Below are positions 2,884 through 13,381 of a stretch of 26,903 bases of DNA, piece after piece. Source of the stretch: a virus (Duplodnaviria > Heunggongvirae > Uroviricota > Caudoviricetes); the IMG/VR virus record IMGVR_UViG_2917413769_000006, positions 1 through 26,903 of that record. One strand, given 5' to 3'. Position numbers and translations under genes: made by a program. Every line of letters begins with the position of its first letter. Positions within the stretch are counted from its first letter, which is position 1. A model generated the notes under the pieces. The model did not search any database. It worked only from the letters and a program-made list of their open reading frames with translations, and was not told where the DNA came from.

Positions 2884-3480
2884 ATGGCGCAGTATTCATT
2901 TGTAAAATCAGCAGGCGGAGTATTAATTCCGGCGACACCTGATGCACGGGAATTTATCGAGAAAAAATTCCGTCTTGGTGCTGTTTTATATGCAGACTTT
3001 AAACAGGCACGTAATGCGGCATTTCACCGTAAATTTTTTGCACTCCTGAATCTTGGTTTCGATTACTGGCAACCGTCGGGCGGTGCAATGTCCCCGGCAG
3101 ATAAAAAACTGGTTCGTGGGTATGTGCAGCTGGTGGCCCATTATGCTGGCCATGAAGAAACACTCCAGGAACTGGCCGATCAGTATCTGCGTGAAGAGGC
3201 AGAAAAACGCGCCGGTAATATCAGCGCTGTAAAATCCTTTGAAGCCTTTCGCGCCTGGGTAACTATTGAGGCGGGTTTTTATACTCAATACGAAATGCCA
3301 GACGGTACTACCCGCAACGAACCCAAATCCATATCGTTCGCCAAAATGGACGATCTCGAGTTTTCCCAACTCTATAAATCCGTACTTGATGTGCTATGGA
3401 ATTATATTTTGTTCCGCACATTTCCCACCCAGCAGGCTGCAGAAAACGCCGCCTCACAATTATTCAGTTACGCCGCATGA
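2884..3480 (+). CDS. nin-region phage protein (DUF1367-like by recollection)
   Basis: 198-aa ORF with RBS; sits directly upstream of, and overlaps by ATGA with, a YbcO-like gene, as in lambdoid nin regions. Family name from memory, not verified. Confidence 0.55.
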   Translation: MAQYSFVKSAGGVLIPATPDAREFIEKKFRLGAVLYADFKQARNAAFHRKFFALLNLGFDYWQPSGGAMSPADKKLVRGYVQLVAHYAGHEETLQELADQYLREEAEKRAGNISAVKSFEAFRAWVTIEAGFYTQYEMPDGTTRNEPKSISFAKMDDLEFSQLYKSVLDVLWNYILFRTFPTQQAAENAASQLFSYAA

Positions 3481-3770
3481 AGAAAATCGATCTCACCAAA
3501 CAGGCGCGCGGTCGCATGTGTACTGTGCGCATTCCAGGTATCTGCAATTTTGATCCAGAAACCAGCGTTCTTGCCCATTATCGCATGAGTGACACCTGCG
3601 GGATGGGAATCAAACCACATGACATGCAAGGCGCAATTGCCTGCAACTGTTGTCATGACGTAATCGATGGCCGTGCAAAAACCGATATTGATCAGGACAC
3701 TCTGAGGCTATATCACGCCGAAGGTGTTTTCCGTACCCAACAAATCTGGAGAGAGGAGGCGTTTATATGA
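3477..3770 (+). CDS. YbcO-like protein (DUF1364), putative Zn-binding nuclease of lambdoid nin regions
   Basis: MKKIDLTKQARGRMCTVRIPGICNFDPETSVLAHYR...ACNCCHDVIDGR: Cys cluster and RIPG.CN..PETSVLAH motif resemble DLP12 YbcO as I recall it; ATGA overlap with the upstream gene. Confidence 0.7.
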   Translation: MKKIDLTKQARGRMCTVRIPGICNFDPETSVLAHYRMSDTCGMGIKPHDMQGAIACNCCHDVIDGRAKTDIDQDTLRLYHAEGVFRTQQIWREEAFI

Positions 3771-4345
3771 TTAACCCATCAACGACAGGAAAGGGTGGTG
3801 AAATGCTGCGATTAAACACCCTCGAGTCAGTCTGGATTCAGGGGAAACTTCGTATGTGGGGCCGATGGTCATATATTGGATCCGGCTCAGGTGGTGACAT
3901 GTTTAATAACCTTCTCGCGTCAAAAAAAGTCAGTAAAACTGCTATTCAGCAGGTGTTGAGGCATCTCAAATCATCGGGTCTGGATCACGGTGAACTGATG
4001 TCATATTTTCTGGACATGCTTTCCGGAAAAGAAAAAAGCAACCTTGCATTCTGTACCGATGAAGAAGGCCTGTTAATGGATGCTGTGATCGGTGAAATAT
4101 TAGTTCGGACTGGTCATCAGCGCCTTTTTAAATTGGTAGTTGATCGGTACAAGGATCGTATGAGTAAGAAGGCTATGGCAAGAGAACTGAATACTCGTCA
4201 CCCGGAATGGTGCCTACGTACCTGCGAAAGTCGAATTGATGTCTGGTTGCAGATGGCAGAAGCCATGCTGTACTTACCAATGTGTGATGTATTCGATAAA
4301 AAAGCTGATCGATTCCGGTTGCAAAGTTGCGCGGGGATTGCTTGA
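3767..4345 (+). CDS. late-gene antiterminator Q-like protein
   Basis: Position immediately upstream of terminator hairpins and the lysis cassette; N-terminal LESVWIQGKLRMWGRW resembles the LERWG.W start of Q-family antiterminators (QuuD-like). Alternative start ATG 3803. Confidence 0.65.
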   Translation: MINPSTTGKGGEMLRLNTLESVWIQGKLRMWGRWSYIGSGSGGDMFNNLLASKKVSKTAIQQVLRHLKSSGLDHGELMSYFLDMLSGKEKSNLAFCTDEEGLLMDAVIGEILVRTGHQRLFKLVVDRYKDRMSKKAMARELNTRHPEWCLRTCESRIDVWLQMAEAMLYLPMCDVFDKKADRFRLQSCAGIA

Positions 4346-4789: not shown

Positions 4790-5194
4790 ATGGTGGGTGA
4801 ACCTGTATCTGCCGTCACCGCTACGACGTTAACCCTGACCAGCGTTACTTTTGCGAGCCTTTTCGCTGATACTCCTGCGGGGGTTTATGTCGGGGCGTTT
4901 GCAGGTGCGGTTGTTTATGTTCTGTCATCGCAGGAATTGAGCAGGTTTGCGCAGGTCGGTTATTTCGTAGCGTCGTTTCTTATCGGCATACTTGGTGCCG
5001 ATTTTACGACAGCAATCCTGAATGGAATGCTCGGCAAGCATTTTCCTGATGGAGTAACGATCGGTAACTGGCTTGGCGCTACTGTAGCGGCAGCGGTTGG
5101 TGTCTGCATTCTGATTTCGTTGCGGAAAATCGACCCCAAAACAATCCTGAGCCGTCTGATATCCGGGGGGAGTGGGGATGGTAACGTTAAATGA
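4790..5194 (+). CDS. putative holin / lysis membrane protein
   Basis: 134-aa ORF with RBS AGGGGG; several strongly hydrophobic segments; first gene after Q and terminators, directly upstream of endolysin. Confidence 0.45.
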   Translation: MVGEPVSAVTATTLTLTSVTFASLFADTPAGVYVGAFAGAVVYVLSSQELSRFAQVGYFVASFLIGILGADFTTAILNGMLGKHFPDGVTIGNWLGATVAAAVGVCILISLRKIDPKTILSRLISGGSGDGNVK

Positions 5195-5474
5195 ATTTCT
5201 CCTGATCGTTAATGCTCTCGCTTGCGCAGTCAGCGCAACAACCCTCGGTACATTCCAGCGCAAAGGGGCGAAACACAAACGTATTGGCGCGTTTCTGGCG
5301 TTAGTGCTGATCATCGCCTGTGGCTCAGTAACTATCCAAATTCTTACCGGGGAATATACCGTAGCAAATCCATCGGAAACGGTGATCAACGTAATGCTGA
5401 CCATATTTATCGTTTCTGCAAAAGGGAATGTGATGCGGGTTTTTAACCGGAATGTAGTCAGTTCGGATAAATAG
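5178..5474 (+). CDS. putative holin / antiholin (small membrane protein)
   Basis: About 98 aa from ATG 5178 (GTG 5172 also possible), three hydrophobic segments, overlaps the preceding ORF and precedes the endolysin. Confidence 0.45.
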   Translation: MVTLNEFLLIVNALACAVSATTLGTFQRKGAKHKRIGAFLALVLIIACGSVTIQILTGEYTVANPSETVINVMLTIFIVSAKGNVMRVFNRNVVSSDK

Positions 5475-5487
5475 CTAAGGTAATTCA

Positions 5488-6099
5488 ATGAATAAATCAC
5501 AGTTTCAGAAGGCGGCTAATATCAGCGCCGAGTTAGCTGCGCGTTGGTTTCAGCCAATTGATGCGGCGATGGCTGAATTTGGCATAACTTCTGCCGATGA
5601 TCAGGCGATGTTTATCGCTCAGGTGGGGCATGAATCTGGAGGTTTCACACGAATTGTGGAAAACCTGAATTATTCTGCTGATGGCTTAAAAGCAACTTTC
5701 GGAAAGTATTTCCCCGGCGACACCGCTCAACAATACGGCCGCACTGCTGATCATCCGGCGGATCAAAAATCAATTGCAAATATTGTTTACGCCCACCGGA
5801 TGGGGAATATTGCAGAAAGCGATGGCTGGAATTATCGCGGTCGCGGCCTGATTCAGATTACCGGGCACGACAATTACCGGGATTGCGGCGCTGGCCTGGG
5901 TGCCGATTTGCTACTGGTTCCGCAGTTGCTGGAGCAGGACGAATATGCGGCTCGTTCGGCAGCGTGGTTCTTTGCCTCGAAAGGCTGCCTGAAACGCAGT
6001 GGCGATATTACGGCAGTAACAAAAATCATCAATGGTGGCACCAATGGCCTTGATGATCGTAAAGCTCGCTACGAAAAAGCGAAATCGGTACTGGTATGA
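5488..6099 (+). CDS. endolysin, glycoside hydrolase family 19 (chitinase-like lysozyme)
   Basis: 203 aa; motifs FIAQVGHESGGF, NYRGRGLIQITG, KIINGGTNGLDDR typical of GH19-type phage lysozymes; position in lysis cassette. Confidence 0.85.
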   Translation: MNKSQFQKAANISAELAARWFQPIDAAMAEFGITSADDQAMFIAQVGHESGGFTRIVENLNYSADGLKATFGKYFPGDTAQQYGRTADHPADQKSIANIVYAHRMGNIAESDGWNYRGRGLIQITGHDNYRDCGAGLGADLLLVPQLLEQDEYAARSAAWFFASKGCLKRSGDITAVTKIINGGTNGLDDRKARYEKAKSVLV

Positions 6100-6635
6100 G
6101 TGCACTGCTTGCCATAGCCGAGAAATACTGGAAGCCACTGGTGATCACGTTGCTGGTGGCTTTTTCGTTATGGCGTGTATTCAACGCGGGATATGAATCG
6201 GCTGATTCTGCCTGGAAGCAACAATGGCTACAGCGAGATCTGGCTGACTCAACCGCAACCTTACATAGAGAGGTTGCCGAGCGAACCGAAGAACGGCGGC
6301 GTCAGCAGGCGGCAGACGAGGAACGAAAACGTGCAGATGAGGAACTGGCAAAAGTACAGGCTGATGCTGACGCTGCTCAGCGGGCTGGTGATGGGTTGCA
6401 GCAACAACTCGCCACGCTACGCAGGCAACTCGCAGGAAGTGAAACCGGCCGCATTTCCGCAATTGCAGCAGCAGGCGCGGCAAAAGCCGAGACCACAAGA
6501 GTGCTTGCCGAGCTGCTTGGCGAATCTGACAAAAGAGCGGGCATCTATGCAAAAGAGGCTGATGAACGCTATGCAGCAGGATCAAGCTGCGAACGAACCT
6601 ACGACAAAGTGACAGGAACAAATAATGGAAATTAA
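6096..6635 (+). CDS. i-spanin (Rz-like)
   Basis: ATGA overlap with endolysin; N-terminal transmembrane helix (WKPLVITLLVAFSLW) followed by charged coiled-coil-like region; contains an embedded ORF in another frame. Confidence 0.75.
   Translation: MSALLAIAEKYWKPLVITLLVAFSLWRVFNAGYESADSAWKQQWLQRDLADSTATLHREVAERTEERRRQQAADEERKRADEELAKVQADADAAQRAGDGLQQQLATLRRQLAGSETGRISAIAAAGAAKAETTRVLAELLGESDKRAGIYAKEADERYAAGSSCERTYDKVTGTNNGN
6337..6612 (+). CDS. o-spanin (Rz1-like outer-membrane lipoprotein), embedded in the i-spanin gene
   Basis: Alternate-frame ORF wholly inside the Rz-like gene; MRNWQKYRLMLTLLSGLVMGC has signal peptide plus lipobox Cys; Pro/Gln-rich mature part with a further Cys (QECLPSC). 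Confidence 0.65.
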   Translation: MRNWQKYRLMLTLLSGLVMGCSNNSPRYAGNSQEVKPAAFPQLQQQARQKPRPQECLPSCLANLTKERASMQKRLMNAMQQDQAANEPTTK

Positions 6636-7023
6636 GTTGGTCAAATACTGGAAGGTTGAGTTATTCGAACAGCAGAAATCAGGGGTTTCTGTATTGATGG
6701 CTGAATCCAGGAAGCCATTTTTCACCGGATACTCAAAAGAGCGAATTAACCCCGAGAAAATCCACGGTAGCGAGTTTATTTCGCTAGCTCCGACTCCTGA
6801 TTCACTGGCACTTGAATCTGTTCGGTTGTATCGGGTTGATGAAATCAAATGCATCCCGGTTTACGAACAGGAAGTTGACTCTTTTGCAGAAGCCGCAGAG
6901 CCACTGATTAAATGGATGGCAGAAAGCGTTCACCCACACCACTCAGCGATCGTAACTTCGACTGGCGCGGAGCTATTGATGAGCGAAAAGACTCACAATA
7001 CCGAAAAATATCTCAAAGACTGA
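6625..7023 (+). CDS. hypothetical protein (moron between lysis cassette and terminase)
   Basis: 132-aa ORF with RBS (aggaacaaataATG); no recognisable motif; followed by about 210 bp of non-coding DNA. Confidence 0.5.
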   Translation: MEIKLVKYWKVELFEQQKSGVSVLMAESRKPFFTGYSKERINPEKIHGSEFISLAPTPDSLALESVRLYRVDEIKCIPVYEQEVDSFAEAAEPLIKWMAESVHPHHSAIVTSTGAELLMSEKTHNTEKYLKD

Positions 7024-7234
7024 CATTACAGAAGCTATTCACGTAGGGGCTTCGATAATGCAAGGCTAAACATTGTCTCCCACCGCGCACCCAGCGCATG
7101 GCAACAGGCGGCATTTATTTTGTTCTGATTTCCCGACAGGTTTGCATTCACGGCAGCATAAACGATCAGTTTCTGATCCATGCGCTATCGCTACTTGCCG
7201 GAGTCATAGTTTTCAGACCAGAGGATTATTCTTT

Positions 7235-8262
7235 ATGTCCAGAGCGAACTGGGAGGAACGATTATCCCTGTTCGCTGATGAATGGAAGCGAACGGAGATA
7301 TCACCAAAAGAGTGGTGTGAAAGAGAAGGGTACTCATGGGGAACGGCGAAAGCATACATCTCGATAAAGGCGGCAAAAGTGCTGCTTTCTTCAGATGGAG
7401 TTATCACCGAGAAGCCAGAAAAAAAAATTGCGAAAAAAAAAGTTCGGAAAAAATCGCGAATTCGGAGATAGAAAAAAGTGCTGAAGAGTTAGCGGAAAAA
7501 AATGGGCTGACGGCGAAGCAAAAAAAATTTATTGCCGAATATCAGAAAGATAATAACGCGACTCAGGCGGCGATTAGAGCCGGGTACAGCGAAAGGAACG
7601 CCGATAAAATCGGACCAGAGTTGCTGGGGAAAACTAGGGTAGCGAAAGAAATCGCGAATCTGCAGAAAGCCCACCTTTCCCGAACATTAATAAAAGCAGA
7701 CGACGTGCTCGAAAAAATGTGGCAGCTCGCCACCTTCGACGCTAACGAGATTTCTCAATATCGGCGTGGTGCCTGTCGTTACTGCTGGGGGTTTGGTCAT
7801 CATTATCAGTGGCGTGATGCAATCGAGTTTGAAGAAAAAAGCTCTGGTGCTCGAGCGAAGAAAGGCAAAGAGCCTAACGATGCTGGTGGATATGGTTACA
7901 ACCATAATGACGAACCTAATCCTGAATGTCCTCGCTGTAACGGTGACGGAGTAGGGCGTGCGCATTTCGCCGATACGACAAAACTTTCCTCTGTTGGCCG
8001 GCTTGCGTATTCCGGTACGAAGCTGGTTAAAGGTGGCATTGAGATTACTGCCATCAGCCGGGAAAAAATGTTTGAAGCGATTATGCGTAGATTAGGCCTT
8101 TCCGATACCGAACTGGCCCAACGGCTGCTTGAGCTTGAAATACGCAAACGTACTGCTGAGGCAGAACGTCTTGAGCATGAAACGGAGCTGAAGCGAAAAG
8201 GCAAAAGCGATGAGAAGCCGACCATCGTTATTAAACTGGTGAATTCCCCTGATGACGACTGA
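7235..8262 (+). CDS. terminase small subunit (P27/Terminase_2-like), reading frame split within A-rich tract 7419-7441
   Basis: N-terminal HTH-like segment MSRANWEERL...ISPKEWCEREGYSWGTAKAYIS from ATG 7235 stops at 7471; the Terminase_2-like core (LTAKQKKFIAEYQKDNNATQAAIRAGYSERNA...) continues in the adjacent frame to 8262. The two frames overlap across two A9 runs (7419-7427, 7433-7441). Confidence 0.65.
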
Positions 8263-9523
8263 ACACGTTATTAAGTTTTTGCCATTTCACGACGGGCAGA
8301 AAAAGATTTATCGATCTCCAGCAAAGAGAAAAGTAATCCGTGCTGGTCGCCGTTATGGCAAAACGACAATGCTTGAGCAGGCCGGGGGAAACTGGGCGGC
8401 ACGACAAATGCGAGTCGGTTGGTTTGCCCCGTCATATAAAATTCTTCTTCCGTCGTTCAAAGCGATTCGGGAACTGTTGAAGCCGATCACAACCAGTTCA
8501 AGTAAGACCGATTCGATTATTGAGACCATTGGCGGCGGTCAGGTCGAATTCTGGACTCTGGATAACCCCGACGCTGGGCGATCCCGTAAATATCACAAAG
8601 TCATCATTGATGAGGGAAGCCTGGTCAAAAAAGGCATGCGTGATATCTGGGAACAGGCAATCGAGCCGACACTGCTGGATTTCGACGGTGATGCTGTAAT
8701 GGCCGGTACGCCTAAGGGTGTGGATGATGAGAATTTTTTCTATCAGGCCTGCAATGATAAATCGATGGGGTGGGAGGAGCACCACGCGCCAACAGCTGCG
8801 AACCCAACGATTAACCCCGCAGCACTGGCGAGGATTATTGACGGTCGCCCGCCGATGGTTGTGCAGCAGGAATATAACGCAGAGTTTGTGGACTGGCGCG
8901 GACAGAACTTTTTCAAACTCGATTGGCTGCTGGAGAATGGCGAAGCTGTCGATTATCCGTTTGCCTGCGATACCGTTTATGGCGTTGTTGACTGTGCGCA
9001 GAAGGGGCAGTTACAGAACGACGGATCTGCGTGCATCTGGTTTGCGCTAAATTCGCTGCCGACGCCTCACCTGGTCATTCTCGATTGGGACATTATCCAG
9101 ATTGACGGTTATTTCCTGAAAGATGTGGTGCCGCAGTGGATAAACAAGGCCAAACAGCTTAGCGAAATCTGCCGGGCACGCATGGGCACCACCGGGCTGT
9201 TTATTGAGGATAAGGCCACCGGCATTACGCTGCTGCAACAAGGCGCTAATGAAGGCTGGAACGTTCACCCCATCGATAGCGAGTTAACGGCGCTGCCGAA
9301 AGAATCTCGCGCCATCAATATTTCTGGATATGTGGCGTCCGGGAAAGTTCGCATTTCTAAATACGCCTTTGACAAAATCGTTGAGTACAAGCAGTCGAAG
9401 AAAAATCATCTTCTGACACAGGTGCTCAAGTTCATCATCGGTGAAGAAGACCAGGACGACGATCTGTTTGATTGCTTTAACTACGGCGTCGCGCTGGGTC
9501 TGGGTAACGGAGAGGGGTTCTGA
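8252..9523 (+). CDS. terminase large subunit
   Basis: 423 aa; Walker A-like GRRYGKTT near N-terminus, acidic motif VIIDEG; overlaps terS stop. Confidence 0.85.
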   Translation: MTTEHVIKFLPFHDGQKKIYRSPAKRKVIRAGRRYGKTTMLEQAGGNWAARQMRVGWFAPSYKILLPSFKAIRELLKPITTSSSKTDSIIETIGGGQVEFWTLDNPDAGRSRKYHKVIIDEGSLVKKGMRDIWEQAIEPTLLDFDGDAVMAGTPKGVDDENFFYQACNDKSMGWEEHHAPTAANPTINPAALARIIDGRPPMVVQQEYNAEFVDWRGQNFFKLDWLLENGEAVDYPFACDTVYGVVDCAQKGQLQNDGSACIWFALNSLPTPHLVILDWDIIQIDGYFLKDVVPQWINKAKQLSEICRARMGTTGLFIEDKATGITLLQQGANEGWNVHPIDSELTALPKESRAINISGYVASGKVRISKYAFDKIVEYKQSKKNHLLTQVLKFIIGEEDQDDDLFDCFNYGVALGLGNGEGF

Positions 9524-10959
9524 TGCAGGACGACGATATTTGCATGGGTAGTAATGCTGGCGTCCTCAGTAAGATTCTGGAGGGCGACAGCATTGAACCC
9601 GGTGCGCAGGCGGGGTATGAGCTCTGCAAGCTGATTTACCTGTTTCACCCGCTGGGCGGAAAGATGGTCGACCGACCGATAAAACTGGCGATGTCGGAAC
9701 CACGAACCGTACATGTAACGCGCGGGCCTGAGAAGCGGTTGCGTGAGGCGTTCGAACGGGAATGGAAAGCGATTAAAGCCGATCGCATTATTGCGAATAC
9801 TGCACGCCAGTCCCGTATTTATGGTGTTGGCGCAGTCGTGATGCTCATTGAAGGCGAGCCCACGAACGAGGCCGCAGGGTTCGATACGCTTTACAGAAAA
9901 TCCATCACCTTTAACGTGCTGGATCCGCTGAACACTGCCGGTTCTGTAGTGCTCAATCAGGATCCTAACTCTGCTGATTTCCAGAAAGTGGGAAGCGTTA
10001 CCGCGGCAGGCAAGCCTTATCACCATAGCCGTTGCTGCGTGATGATGAACGAGGATCCGATCTATCTGGCCTACACGCCATCGTCTTTCGGGTTTGCCGG
10101 GCGCAGCGTTTACCAGCGTGCACTTTATCCACTGAAATCATTCATTCAGTCGATGCGCGCTGATGACATGGTGACGATTAAAGCCGGGCTGCTGGTGGCG
10201 TTCATCAAACAGGCCAGCTCCATCGTCAATAACATGATGCAGAAAATGTCCGGGATTAAACGCTGGATGTTGAAACGCGGTGGTAACGGTGACGTGTTGC
10301 AGGTAGGAGAGAATGACAAGATTGAATCTCTCGACATGCAGAACCTCGAAAAGCCGCTGGATACTGCCCGTAACCACATTCTGGCGAATATCGCGACGGC
10401 GGCAGATATGCCCGCGATTCTGCTCAACAGTGAGACGTTTACGCGCGGGTTTGGTGAAGGAACAGAGGATGCAAAAGCGGTCGCCCAGTATATCGACGAT
10501 GTACGTAAAGATTTGCAGCCGCTTTATGATTTTTTCGTGCGCATCGTTCAGTACCGGGCGTGGTCACCTGAATTTTTCGACGCTCTGAAAAACGATTTGC
10601 CCGAGTACAAGAGTCTCAGTTGGGAGGCGGCTTTCAGTTCCTGGGTGAACAATTTTGAATATGTCTGGCCTTCGTCTCTGAAAGAGCCGGAAAGTGAAAA
10701 AGTCAAAGTCGATGAAACGCGCTTTAAGGCGATCACTGAGATGTTGACTGTGCTGCTTCCGCAACTCACCAAAGACCCGGAAAACAGGGCGACGCTTATT
10801 AAGTGGGCCTGTGAGAATGCCAACATGAACGAAAACCTGTTTGCCGATCGGCTTGAGCTGGATTATGAGCTGCTGGAGAAATTCCCTCCGGATCCACCTT
10901 CAACAAGCAATGATAGGGAGGATGGTGATAATGGCCTCATTCGTGAAAGAGCTGCGTGA
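9523..10959 (+). CDS. portal protein
   Basis: 478-aa ORF immediately after terL (ATGA overlap); size and position; no motif independently confirmed. Confidence 0.7.
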   Translation: MQDDDICMGSNAGVLSKILEGDSIEPGAQAGYELCKLIYLFHPLGGKMVDRPIKLAMSEPRTVHVTRGPEKRLREAFEREWKAIKADRIIANTARQSRIYGVGAVVMLIEGEPTNEAAGFDTLYRKSITFNVLDPLNTAGSVVLNQDPNSADFQKVGSVTAAGKPYHHSRCCVMMNEDPIYLAYTPSSFGFAGRSVYQRALYPLKSFIQSMRADDMVTIKAGLLVAFIKQASSIVNNMMQKMSGIKRWMLKRGGNGDVLQVGENDKIESLDMQNLEKPLDTARNHILANIATAADMPAILLNSETFTRGFGEGTEDAKAVAQYIDDVRKDLQPLYDFFVRIVQYRAWSPEFFDALKNDLPEYKSLSWEAAFSSWVNNFEYVWPSSLKEPESEKVKVDETRFKAITEMLTVLLPQLTKDPENRATLIKWACENANMNENLFADRLELDYELLEKFPPDPPSTSNDREDGDNGLIRERAA

Positions 10960-11806: not shown

Positions 11807-13381
11807 GTGAAAACCTACGCTGCCGGGATCCTGTTCAAGTCTGGCGGGAAAATATTTCTGGTAAAGCGTGGGGATGATGGTTCATGGGCGGTACCGGGTG
11901 GGAAACTCGAAGAGGGCGAAACGCCGGAAGCCGCAGCAAGGCGTGAAGTGATGGAAGAATGCGGGTTTGATTATTCCAGCCCCCTGACGCCGCATACCCT
12001 GATTGATGGCTATGTTACCTATCTTGCTGATGATGTTGAGCAGTTCGACGCGGTTCTGAATGAGGAGAATCAAGCTTATGGCTGGTTTTCTCCTGCTGAA
12101 CTGCCCGATCCGCTACATCCCGGCATGGTGGCGATGCTTGATGCCGAACCACTAAATGAAATGGACGTTGCCGGGCTTATCGCTCACGGGCAACTCACAT
12201 CCCCGCAATTTTTCAGAAATATGTACCTGTGGGCGCTGCGTATCACCGGAACGGGTGTTACCTGGCGATCCAGATTCAGGCAATACGCCTACCGATCCCC
12301 TGAAAACTATCTGACGGATGAATTCCTCGCCCGGTGCTCTGGGCTGCCGGTTATCTGGTGGCACCCGGAGAAAAACACGCTCAGCAGCGAGGAATTCGCC
12401 TCAAGGACGATCGGGACCATCGCGTTTGCCTGGATAAAGGGTGATGAGGTGTGGGGAATGGCCCGCATCTATGACACCGACGCCGCTGCGAATCTTTCAA
12501 CGCGGCAACTGAGCACATCCCCCACGGTGGTGGGCGGCGATGACGTTCTGATCAACGTCGACGGTGAACCGCTGCTGCTGGAAGGAACTCCGGAATTGTT
12601 AGATCACCTTGCGATTTGTGAACAGGGCGTCTGGGACAAGCTGGGAGAACCGACGGGAGTTAAATCCGACACACTTGTAAACGAGGTCCAGAAAATGGAT
12701 GAAGAAAAATTATTAGCACTCATTAACCAGGCGCTGGACGCTCGCGAAGCCCGCGCAAAGGCTGACGCCGAGGAAAAAGCGAAAGCAGATGCAGAGGCCG
12801 CAGAAAAGGCTAAAGCCGATGAAGACGCCGCCCGCATTAAGGAAGAGGAAGAAAAAGCGAAGGCTGACGCCGAGGCAAAAGCGAAAGCTGATGCGGAGGC
12901 AGAAGAAAAGGCCAAAGCGGACGCCGAGCTGGAGAAAATCCGCGCAGACATGGAAGAAATGAAAAGCCGTGTGCCGCAGGAACTCAGCGACGAAGAGCGC
13001 AATGAGATCGCTGATACCCAGTGCAAAGCTGACAGCGTATTTGCCTCTTTCGGCGAACGCGCGCCGCAACCTATGGCGGGTGAACGTGCGCTGCCCTACC
13101 GCCGCCGCATCATGACCCGCCTGCAGAAATATTCTCCTGATTATAAAGAAGTGGATCTGCATGCCATCGCAGACAGCCAGCTCCTGAGCATCGCGGAGAA
13201 AAAAATCTATGCCGATGCGCAGGCATCAGCGGCATCCAGCCTGGAACCCGGCGCTGGGCTGCGTGAAGTCATTCGCACCGATGCCACCGGGCGCCGTATC
13301 AGCACCTTTATCGGCGATCCGTCAGCAACATGGGCGCCTTTCCAGGCTGTCAGCCGTAAAGTCGCTGGCATCAAACAGTAA
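11807..13381 (+). CDS. Nudix hydrolase domain fused to head scaffold/protease-like protein
   Basis: GTG start 5 nt after RBS ACGGAGGA. Residues about 1-110 form a Nudix fold with a complete Nudix box [24 protein letters not shown] (G-x5-E-x7-REUxEExGU). Remainder: globular middle domain, imperfect KADAEA-type coiled-coil repeats (about 12747-12930), basic C-terminus; occupies the protease/scaffold slot between the F-like gene and capsid genes. Confidence 0.75.

Follow-up and report, generated by a model that had tools for sequence, protein, structure and literature searches.

We found that a 26,903-nt stretch of prophage DNA (IMG/VR record IMGVR_UViG_2917413769_000006, hereafter the window) carries a conserved RNA hairpin of 37 nt between its lysis genes and the terminase gene terS. 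The hairpin begins on the base after the TGA stop codon of ORF132, an open reading frame (ORF) at 6625-7023 that encodes 132 amino acids (aa) and lies directly behind the spanin gene Rz. ORF132 is itself a genuine conserved gene. By analogy with the repetitive extragenic palindromic (REP) sequences of Escherichia coli, we read the whole region as a late accessory gene followed by a REP-like intercistronic RNA hairpin at the lysis-terminase junction, and we give this reading a probability of about 0.5. A preliminary description of the same DNA, made from its letters alone, had taken ORF132 for a candidate moron and had suggested that the spacer behind it holds a signal, pointing to a palindrome at 7164-7178. 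A conserved cis-element does lie in the spacer; however, it is the hairpin at 7024-7060, which that description had overlooked, and not the palindrome, which occurs at chance level.

A covarying RNA hairpin behind the stop codon of ORF132

The hairpin was first seen by listing the sequence behind the stop codon of each locus that had been anchored by an ORF132-related protein. In the window it reads CAUUACAG-AAGCUAUU-CACGU-AGGGGCUU-CGAUAAUG. The general form is CATTACAG, a variable 8-nt arm, a loop of 4-7 nt (often CACTG within TTCACTGAG), the complementary arm and CGATAATG, and the length varies from 34 to 39 nt across variants. A pattern scan of IMG/VR gave at least 120 stretches, and 106 instances among the matches listed were true hairpins. 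We kept 88 of these 106 in an alignment (A8) of distinct sequences, for which at least four stem pairs were required. Their consensus fold consists of a 5-bp outer helix, a 2x2 CA/GA internal loop and a 9-bp inner helix.

In this alignment, 99.1% of the stem cells were paired, compared with 83.8% in shuffles and 35-54% when the partner was slid. Double-sided changes were observed in 155 cells distributed over eight pairs, against 46 in shuffles. G.U pairs occupied 132 cells, whereas non-pairs occupied 11, and so many G.U pairs mean that the hairpin folds on the sense strand only, which points to RNA. A conserved RNA hairpin is therefore strongly supported by covariation. The covariance model R1 found one copy in the window (7024-7060, + strand; 50.4 bits, E 1.9e-9), with 8.8 bits on the other strand. 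The minimum free energy of the window copy is -12.9 kcal/mol (z -2.2), and the hairpin, at 75-90% nucleotide identity, is more conserved than the adjoining gene is at its synonymous sites (proportion of synonymous differences 0.57-0.75).

Each of the 88 variants has CGAUAAUG at its end and is without a U-tract downstream. We rejected the hairpin as an intrinsic terminator, as the window copy is followed by CAAGGCUAAACA and not by a U-run. Rfam, searched at E <= 10 with window positions 6990-7250 and with the surroundings of the copy in phage phi80, returned only chance matches to snoRNA and miRNA families, and we found no description of the hairpin sequence or of a junction stem-loop in the searchable literature. 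Among the annotated records inspected, the hairpin was intergenic in all but one and was never annotated as a feature. As far as the tools used show, it is previously undescribed.

Distribution and context of the hairpin

The starts of the hairpins are closely tied to stop codons. Among the matches listed, 71 of 101 non-redundant copies start 0-12 nt (median 3) past a stop codon on the same strand, compared with 5.9% of random positions. When we examined 78 non-redundant loci with a gene for the C-terminal domain of ORF132 (the C-domain, see below), the hairpin stood directly after that gene in 48 and between Rz and the gene in none (0/78). Among the pattern-found copies listed, only 4 of 125 follow a C-domain gene, and the others follow spanins, Rha/Ant-type regulators and small unknown genes. 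On the downstream side we observed terS genes of several PHROG families, at least four of them unrelated, whose Shine-Dalgarno sequence and ATG usually come about 20 nt on; some copies precede other genes, such as transposase-like and glycosyltransferase genes. At least 10 loci have two or three copies on the same strand, 300-1200 nt apart and bracketing single genes.

The copy in phi80 lies 6 nt after the stop of rha and 1.8 kb before cos, and the next gene there is on the reverse strand. The hairpin is also present in ST64B, Fels-1, phiP27, mEp390, cdtI and many temperate phages of Klebsiella and E. coli. In about 15 loci of one family (L060-L079), a second, different conserved sequence (TTCCCCCGACAAGGAATAGATAGCTTCTCTCGATGGAGGTGATCGCC...) occurs ~1-45 nt past the C-domain stop, exemplified by L060 4157-4200, where it replaces the junction hairpin. 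Loci L081 and L104 have a variant hairpin with the same TTCACCGAG loop and other outer arms.

ORF132 is a conserved accessory gene, probably of the late operon

The preliminary description had the coordinates of ORF132 right, and also its good ribosome-binding site: a Shine-Dalgarno AGGA ends 7 nt upstream of the ATG. The start codon lies inside the Rz gene, and the two genes overlap by 11 nt at the Rz stop (ATGGAAATTAA). The whole protein matches the hidden Markov model (HMM) of PHROG 16206 (E 4.4e-42), its residues 1-132 aligning with positions 1-137 of the 137 in the profile. We collected 28 close homologues from prophages of Salmonella, Citrobacter, Klebsiella, Izhakiella and others, and their alignment has 16 invariant columns.

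The ratio of non-synonymous to synonymous substitution rates (dN/dS) of ORF132 against 13 homologues was 0.07-0.22 where it was estimable (dS was saturated for one), and the synonymous sites are near saturation, with a proportion of synonymous differences (pS) of 0.57-0.83. Closer pairs gave a dN/dS of 0.15-0.45. The preliminary description had named a pseudo-ORF among its refuting conditions; the PHROG 16206 match, the dN/dS values (0.07-0.45 in all, mostly about 0.1-0.2) and the recurrence in the same slot in more than 40 prophages show that ORF132 is a genuine gene.

Prophages from Salmonella, E. coli and IMG/VR share the order Rz-ORF-terS as well as the 11-nt overlap. In the Salmonella and E. 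coli relatives the upstream holins, endolysins and Q genes differ, whereas this order is constant. A simple consensus scan of 6400-7600 on both strands found no sigma-70-like promoter, although a weak or non-canonical promoter could escape such a scan, and the scan of the same region found no + strand factor-independent terminator for ORF132. ORF132 is a late-operon accessory gene and not an autonomous moron: it is not a moron in the strict sense because it overlaps the Rz stop and is without a promoter or terminator of its own, and we call it accessory because many relatives lack it.

The slot between the lysis genes and terS

We collected about 90 loci encoding ORF132 relatives, called the neighbouring genes and made subsets non-redundant. 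Where a + strand upstream gene was present within 400 nt, that gene was an Rz-like spanin in ~52 of 68 non-redundant loci. These spanins fall into at least three sequence clusters (PHROGs 214/13, 312, 3001/456 and others). The position behind a spanin was true for the full-length homologues and for many C-domain-only proteins, and terS and TerL genes of several families lie within two genes downstream in most loci.

A comparison of gene content at this slot, which the preliminary description had recommended, showed that ORF132 is not universal. Homologues are present in Salmonella, E. coli and Pantoea prophages; many phages have Rz, the hairpin and terS with nothing else between, and in Klebsiella phages with a similar terS we detected no full-length ORF132 homologue. 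The cargo of the slot is variable and includes Rha/Ant antirepressors, glycosyltransferase sets, an integrase, an HNH endonuclease and small unknown genes. The idea of a moron slot was thus correct in that relatives have a variable accessory-gene slot here. It does not fit ORF132 itself, which is without a promoter or terminator, is probably coupled to Rz in translation, and keeps the same place behind three spanin families.

Cargo can enter downstream of an ORF132 homologue, as observed in L006, L010, L015, L026 and the Ant/Rha loci. In L006 (ENA contig NODE_88, where the homologue ORF133 is 80% identical), a Phage_integrase tyrosine-recombinase gene (5454-6467) starts 51 nt after ORF133 and its hairpin. 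It has the same orientation and sits between the lysis module and a different terS, an odd location for an integrase; a homologous recombinase likewise follows the C-domain gene in L097. A set of three genes, namely an MptE-like 'sialyltransferase' (PHROG 4603), a GT9-like glycosyltransferase (PHROG 6804) and a methyltransferase, follows the ORF132 homologue and the hairpin in L010 (5488-7581), L026 (4461-5903) and L015 (4986-6520), and looks like surface-modification cargo. In L015 a weak second hairpin lies behind this set. L026 also has an HNH endonuclease gene (PHROG 99; 3423-3938) between Rz and the ORF132 homologue, which breaks the usual overlap.

ORF132 consists of two domains

From its sequence, ORF132 has no transmembrane segment, signal peptide or lipobox. 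Its beta-rich N-terminal domain covers residues 1-80 (6625-6864), and the C-domain, a helix plus a beta-hairpin, covers residues 83-132 (6871-7020). The AlphaFold model of the whole protein, with a predicted local distance difference test (pLDDT) score of 77, has a beta-rich N-terminal part followed by a C-terminal helix and two strands. A model of the C-domain from 95 sequences reached a pLDDT of 91.8, with a helix at 4-24 and a beta-hairpin at 29-33/38-42.

We searched a profile of ORF132 against 1.84 billion representatives and obtained 865 matches at E<1e-3. Among the best 150 of these 865, about 15 were full length, and most others share only residues ~83-132. These partial relatives are stand-alone proteins of 53-70 aa or the C-termini of unrelated proteins, one of them with an Ead/Ea22-like N-terminus. 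When we searched with a profile of the C-domain, 891 clusters came up; all were hypothetical proteins, and none had a Pfam domain. The stand-alone proteins match PHROG 16206 and PHROG 4621, clusters that are without a described function, structure or Pfam model; neither the two domains nor the link to Rz and the hairpin is recorded there. A minority of the stand-alone C-domain genes lie in early regions beside RecT or Sak4 genes, and others belong to lytic Kosakonia and Vibrio phages, in which they do not adjoin the lysis genes. Escherichia sp. E1130 has a second C-domain protein (P0198), encoded on another contig of 606 kb, that is stand-alone, 59 aa long and 89% identical to ORF132 residues ~78-132; its gene presumably sits in another prophage.

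The protein had been described as lacking a recognisable domain. No Pfam domain was found, in agreement with that statement, but the full-length match to PHROG 16206 goes beyond it. The remote-homology and structure prediction that had been called for yielded the two domains, the PHROG assignment and the presence of the C-domain in ~900 clusters, but no functional match: homology and fold searches in Pfam, NCBIfam, PDB sequence profiles and BFVD gave nothing informative on function. No RNA-binding fold was detected. Resemblances to GnsA and to Sm-like proteins were not used because they were below any useful threshold. ORF132 and five relatives had no match to the PADLOC defence HMMs at E <= 0.1, and the earlier proposal of a superinfection-related gene receives no support from that source.

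The long spacer and its GATC palindrome

The gap of about 210 bp reported earlier between the ORF132 stop and the terS start is 211 nt long (7024-7234). The inverted repeat GATCAGTTTCTGATC, with GATC at both ends, is present as described. Perfect inverted repeats with 6-nt arms and 3-8-nt loops occur 47 times in the window, compared with 43.5 +/- 6.5 in Markov shuffles, and the chance expectation is ~0.34 per 211 nt. Locus L049 has the only diverged copy of the long spacer (81% identity), and there the arms of the palindrome are complementary only at the two GATC. Because of the chance frequency and the unconserved arms in L049, we rejected the palindrome as a signal. It was also rejected as a terminator, since it gave only a minus-strand consensus match and the number of such matches is within chance expectation.

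The comparison with L049 also settled the coding potential of the spacer. Three single-base indels break the frame of a 48-aa reverse ORF (7035-7181), and the same indels break a TTG-started extension of the terS frame (7073). Both candidates were rejected; the spacer is non-coding in both frames, as had been described. We know the long spacer only in Escherichia sp. E1130 and one other viral contig (L049/L226): two IMG/VR pattern scans gave only the contig of L049, E. coli genomes gave no further copies, and a metagenome pattern scan gave two unrelated chance matches only. Folding of 7061-7240 revealed no significant structure (z -1.26 and -0.91), and the predicted folds of the two homologues disagree. 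In the comparison with all loci, only the first 40 nt of the spacer are widely conserved, and the remaining 174 nt, the palindrome included, show nothing beyond the terS ribosome-binding site.

The locus and its neighbouring genes

For the ORF132 product, NCBI lists a 100% identical protein from Escherichia sp. E1130, and we recovered the locus from GCA_005781065.1. The window is a lambdoid-type prophage of this strain, and the region 6625-7234 is the end of its lysis module (Table 1). The Rz1 gene in the table is inferred from the standard embedded Rz/Rz1 architecture. Near-mode similarity searches of the region against phage DNA gave no match; a distant-mode search gave pieces of terS and two short chance matches, and E. 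coli genomes matched at the spanin end only.

Table 1. Positions of the lysis, junction and terminase features in the window
Feature	Position	Strand	Evidence or remark
Two holins	4790-5194, 5172-5474		
GH19 endolysin	5488-6099		
Rz-like i-spanin, DUF2514, PHROG 312	6096-6635	+	Pfam DUF2514 E 1.4e-31; PHROG 312 E 4e-53
Putative embedded Rz1-like o-spanin, +1 frame, lipobox LVMGC	6337-6612	+	Translation of frame 6175-6612 (MRNWQKYRLMLTLLSGLVMGCS...)
ORF132, PHROG 16206	6625-7023	+	132 aa, ATG start
Junction hairpin	7024-7060	+	Covariance model R1, covariation, folding
Remaining non-coding spacer, 174 nt	7061-7234	.	Includes terS Shine-Dalgarno GAGGA at ~7222-7226
Perfect inverted repeat GATCAG-TTT-CTGATC, two GATC	7164-7178	.	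Chance level, unconserved
terS: N-terminal helix-turn-helix-like part and Terminase_2	7235-8262	+	Split into two frames in the window
TerL	8252-9523		
Portal	9523-10959		

In the window, terS is split into 7235-7471 (78 aa) and 7336-8262 (308 aa) because two A-runs, at 7419-7427 and 7433-7441, are A9 instead of A8, with one extra A apiece. Two Illumina-based sequences of the same strain, L008 (GCA_005781065.1) and L009 (SRR8835199), have A8/A8 and an intact 341-aa terS. The A9 runs are most likely a homopolymer sequencing or assembly error, and possibly real slippage in terS.

Close homologues of TerL and of the portal protein carry the RefSeq names 'MalT transcriptional regulator family protein' and 'anti-CBASS protein Acb1 family protein', respectively (annotation of L011). 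These are probably misleading automatic labels, since PHROG and Pfam say TerL and Phage_portal_3. In the head-gene block, after a Mu-F-like gene, the window encodes a 524-aa protein (11807-13381, + strand) with an N-terminal NUDIX/MutT-like domain (residues 5-100; NCBIfam E ~1e-9; PF00293 flagged in relatives). A NUDIX domain within a morphogenesis module is unusual.

Discussion

We suggest that ORF132 is a non-structural gene, transcribed on the Q-dependent late transcript and translated by coupling to Rz via the 11-nt overlap. Its product would be a soluble cytoplasmic protein, with an N-terminal beta domain that appears confined to enterobacterial prophages and a C-domain, widespread in phages and fused to varied N-terminal parts, that would most likely serve in protein binding or oligomerisation. 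The late mRNA is predicted to fold into the 37-nt hairpin right behind the ORF132 stop. The hairpin may be a general punctuation of the lysis-terminase junction in enterobacterial lambdoid phages, with Rz-hairpin-terS as the minimal form. Extra cargo genes would each end in a hairpin of their own, which gives the arrangement (holin-endolysin-Rz/Rz1-ORF132)-hairpin-(optional cargo-hairpin)-terS. Lying within 15 nt of the stop codon, the hairpin might shield the upstream message from 3' exonucleases, impede the terminating ribosome, or do both. In either case, the hairpin would determine how strongly the last lysis-side gene is expressed and would uncouple that gene from terS.

The analogy is with REPs, which stall ribosomes when they lie <16 nt from a stop codon and whose hairpins stabilise the upstream mRNA (PMC12306157). 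Both the junction hairpin and an E. coli REP are imperfect palindromes of 35-40 nt that fold in the sense transcript, separate the genes of a polycistronic operon, usually no more than 15 nt past the upstream stop, and show compensatory changes in a conserved sequence. It differs from REPs in several ways. In the prophage loci surveyed there are 1-3 copies per phage at the lysis-terminase junction, whereas REPs are present in hundreds and dispersed over the chromosome; no REP-associated tyrosine transposase (RAYT) is linked to the hairpin; and its apical loop and 2x2 internal loop are conserved. Its sequence is presumably unrelated to the REP consensus motifs. The likeness is therefore an analogy and not membership, as copy number, distribution and sequence differ.

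Several observations weigh against the reading of the hairpin as a REP-like barrier behind a late accessory gene. In the window copy, the inner stem contains one A.G mismatch and the loop is a variant. For most of the sampled hairpins the search pattern itself dictated the outer 8+8 nt, so that the protein-anchored loci, which show the same ends without this bias, are the sole independent evidence for the conservation of the ends; the requirement for at least four stem pairs also slightly inflates the pairing statistics. The C-domain occurs in early regions adjoining RecT/Sak4 genes, so a lysis-specific role is not required. Finally, the conserved UUCACUGAG-like loop, the CA/GA internal loop and the invariant outer helix hint at recognition by a specific factor, which a passive barrier does not need.

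Recognition of that kind would suit an operator at which a specific RNA-binding protein, of the phage or of the host, controls the downstream gene, chiefly terS, on the model of Mu Com on the mom mRNA or of the coat-protein operators. Such an operator would agree with the conservation of the loop, the internal loop and the outer helix around a stem middle that covaries freely, and with the terS Shine-Dalgarno and ATG about 20 nt past the hairpin in many loci. The ORF132 C-domain could be the binding protein, in line with the hairpin directly behind 48 of 78 C-domain genes; with only 4 of the 125 hairpins listed behind such a gene, however, the C-domain protein cannot be the general partner, and we set it aside on this count. 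ORF132 also shows no detectable RNA-binding fold. The hairpin moreover stands before terS genes of several unrelated families and before transposase-like, glycosyltransferase and other genes; in the window, 174 nt separate it from the start of terS, and in phi80 the gene behind it is on the reverse strand. We consider control through such an operator unlikely. The place of ORF132 directly 3' of Rz/Rz1, behind three spanin clusters, its 11-nt stop/start overlap with a DUF2514-type Rz and its location on the lysis side of the junction hairpin could instead speak for an accessory protein devoted to lysis, one that works with the spanin or endolysin or acts on it, for example in timing or in late envelope disruption. 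Known lysis regulators act in the envelope, whereas the sequence of ORF132 shows neither a signal peptide nor a transmembrane segment nor a lipobox. In many phages that have these spanin types, Rz is followed directly by the hairpin and the gene is absent, and the C-domain alone is encoded in early regions or, in lytic Vibrio and Kosakonia phages, at a distance from the lysis genes. A role in lysis itself is somewhat less likely again.

The hairpin could also act as DNA, as a recombination or packaging site (an attC-like boundary, a homology patch or part of a pac or cos site), so that ORF132 plus hairpin would form a mobile cassette. Slot genes individually trailed by copies (L133, L200, L198, L012, L015), the tyrosine recombinase gene behind ORF133 and its hairpin in L006, an ORF plus hairpin outside the usual context in L010 and the high variability of the cargo are the observations that favour it, and the resemblance to integron cassettes is evident: an ORF followed by a covarying palindrome with conserved ends, several units in a row in a variable slot, and in L006 a tyrosine recombinase. 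However, the 132 G.U pairs would turn into A.C mismatches on the other strand, and the element is always in sense orientation to the flanking genes with its position tied to stop codons; this strand asymmetry and stop-codon proximity set the element apart from integron cassettes and speak for RNA. Since a hairpin is absent between Rz and ORF132, the gene is not bracketed like a cassette. The attC core sites (R''/L''...L'/R') have the consensus RYYYAAC ... GTTRRRY, and IntI recognises the folded bottom strand; by inspection, the hairpin ends (CATTACAG ... CGATAATG) are unlike the R''/R' cores, and no attC core sites and no intI/attI/Pc platform are found. The preliminary suggestion that the spacer holds cos or pac also finds no support, as the hairpin precedes at least four unrelated terS families and non-terS genes and lies 1.8 kb from cos in phi80. 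We regard a function of the hairpin as DNA as improbable. The view that ORF132 is an autonomous moron with its own signals and a superinfection or defence function, with the GATC palindrome as a regulatory or packaging signal, is very improbable. Like the lambdoid morons (rha in phi80, bor in lambda), whose functions are unknown or directed at the host, ORF132 looks non-essential, occupies the same slot between Rz and cos/terS and is patchily present; the slot is variable, both GATC sites are kept in L049, and the same hairpin follows rha in phi80. Unlike morons in the Hendrix/Juhala sense, ORF132 has no promoter-like site within 6400-7600 and no + strand terminator, overlaps and is probably coupled to Rz, and stands next to a spanin in dozens of prophages. 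It has no PADLOC match, the palindrome is of a kind that occurs at chance frequency and its arms are unconserved, and shuffled sequence folds as well as the remainder of the spacer does.

Returning to the REP-like hairpin behind a late accessory gene, two extensions would reach further. It is conceivable, but a long shot, that lambdoid late operons capture genes and that the hairpin marks the boundaries in this system. Accessory genes would then travel with a copy each, and exchange at the copies, by a recombinase (like that of L006) or by Rad52-type recombination of the phage on the 37-bp patch, would build up the variable array in front of terS; the hairpin would double as an RNA signal that sets how each captured gene is expressed. 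In a milder version, the hairpin may be a new class of cis-regulatory RNA with a dedicated binding factor.

The C-domain is a compact, confidently modelled 50-aa domain found in ~900 protein clusters, without a Pfam entry or PDB match. The hairpin matters more than the ORF132 protein, which is itself one more conserved phage hypothetical. It is a covarying, strand-specific RNA motif tied to stop codons at the lysis-packaging boundary of phi80, ST64B, Fels-1, phiP27 and hundreds of prophages, and it offers annotators a simple landmark of the lysis-terminase junction. If it sets the ratio of lysis to packaging expression, or marks the exchange of cargo, the hairpin would explain the organisation of this lambdoid hot spot.

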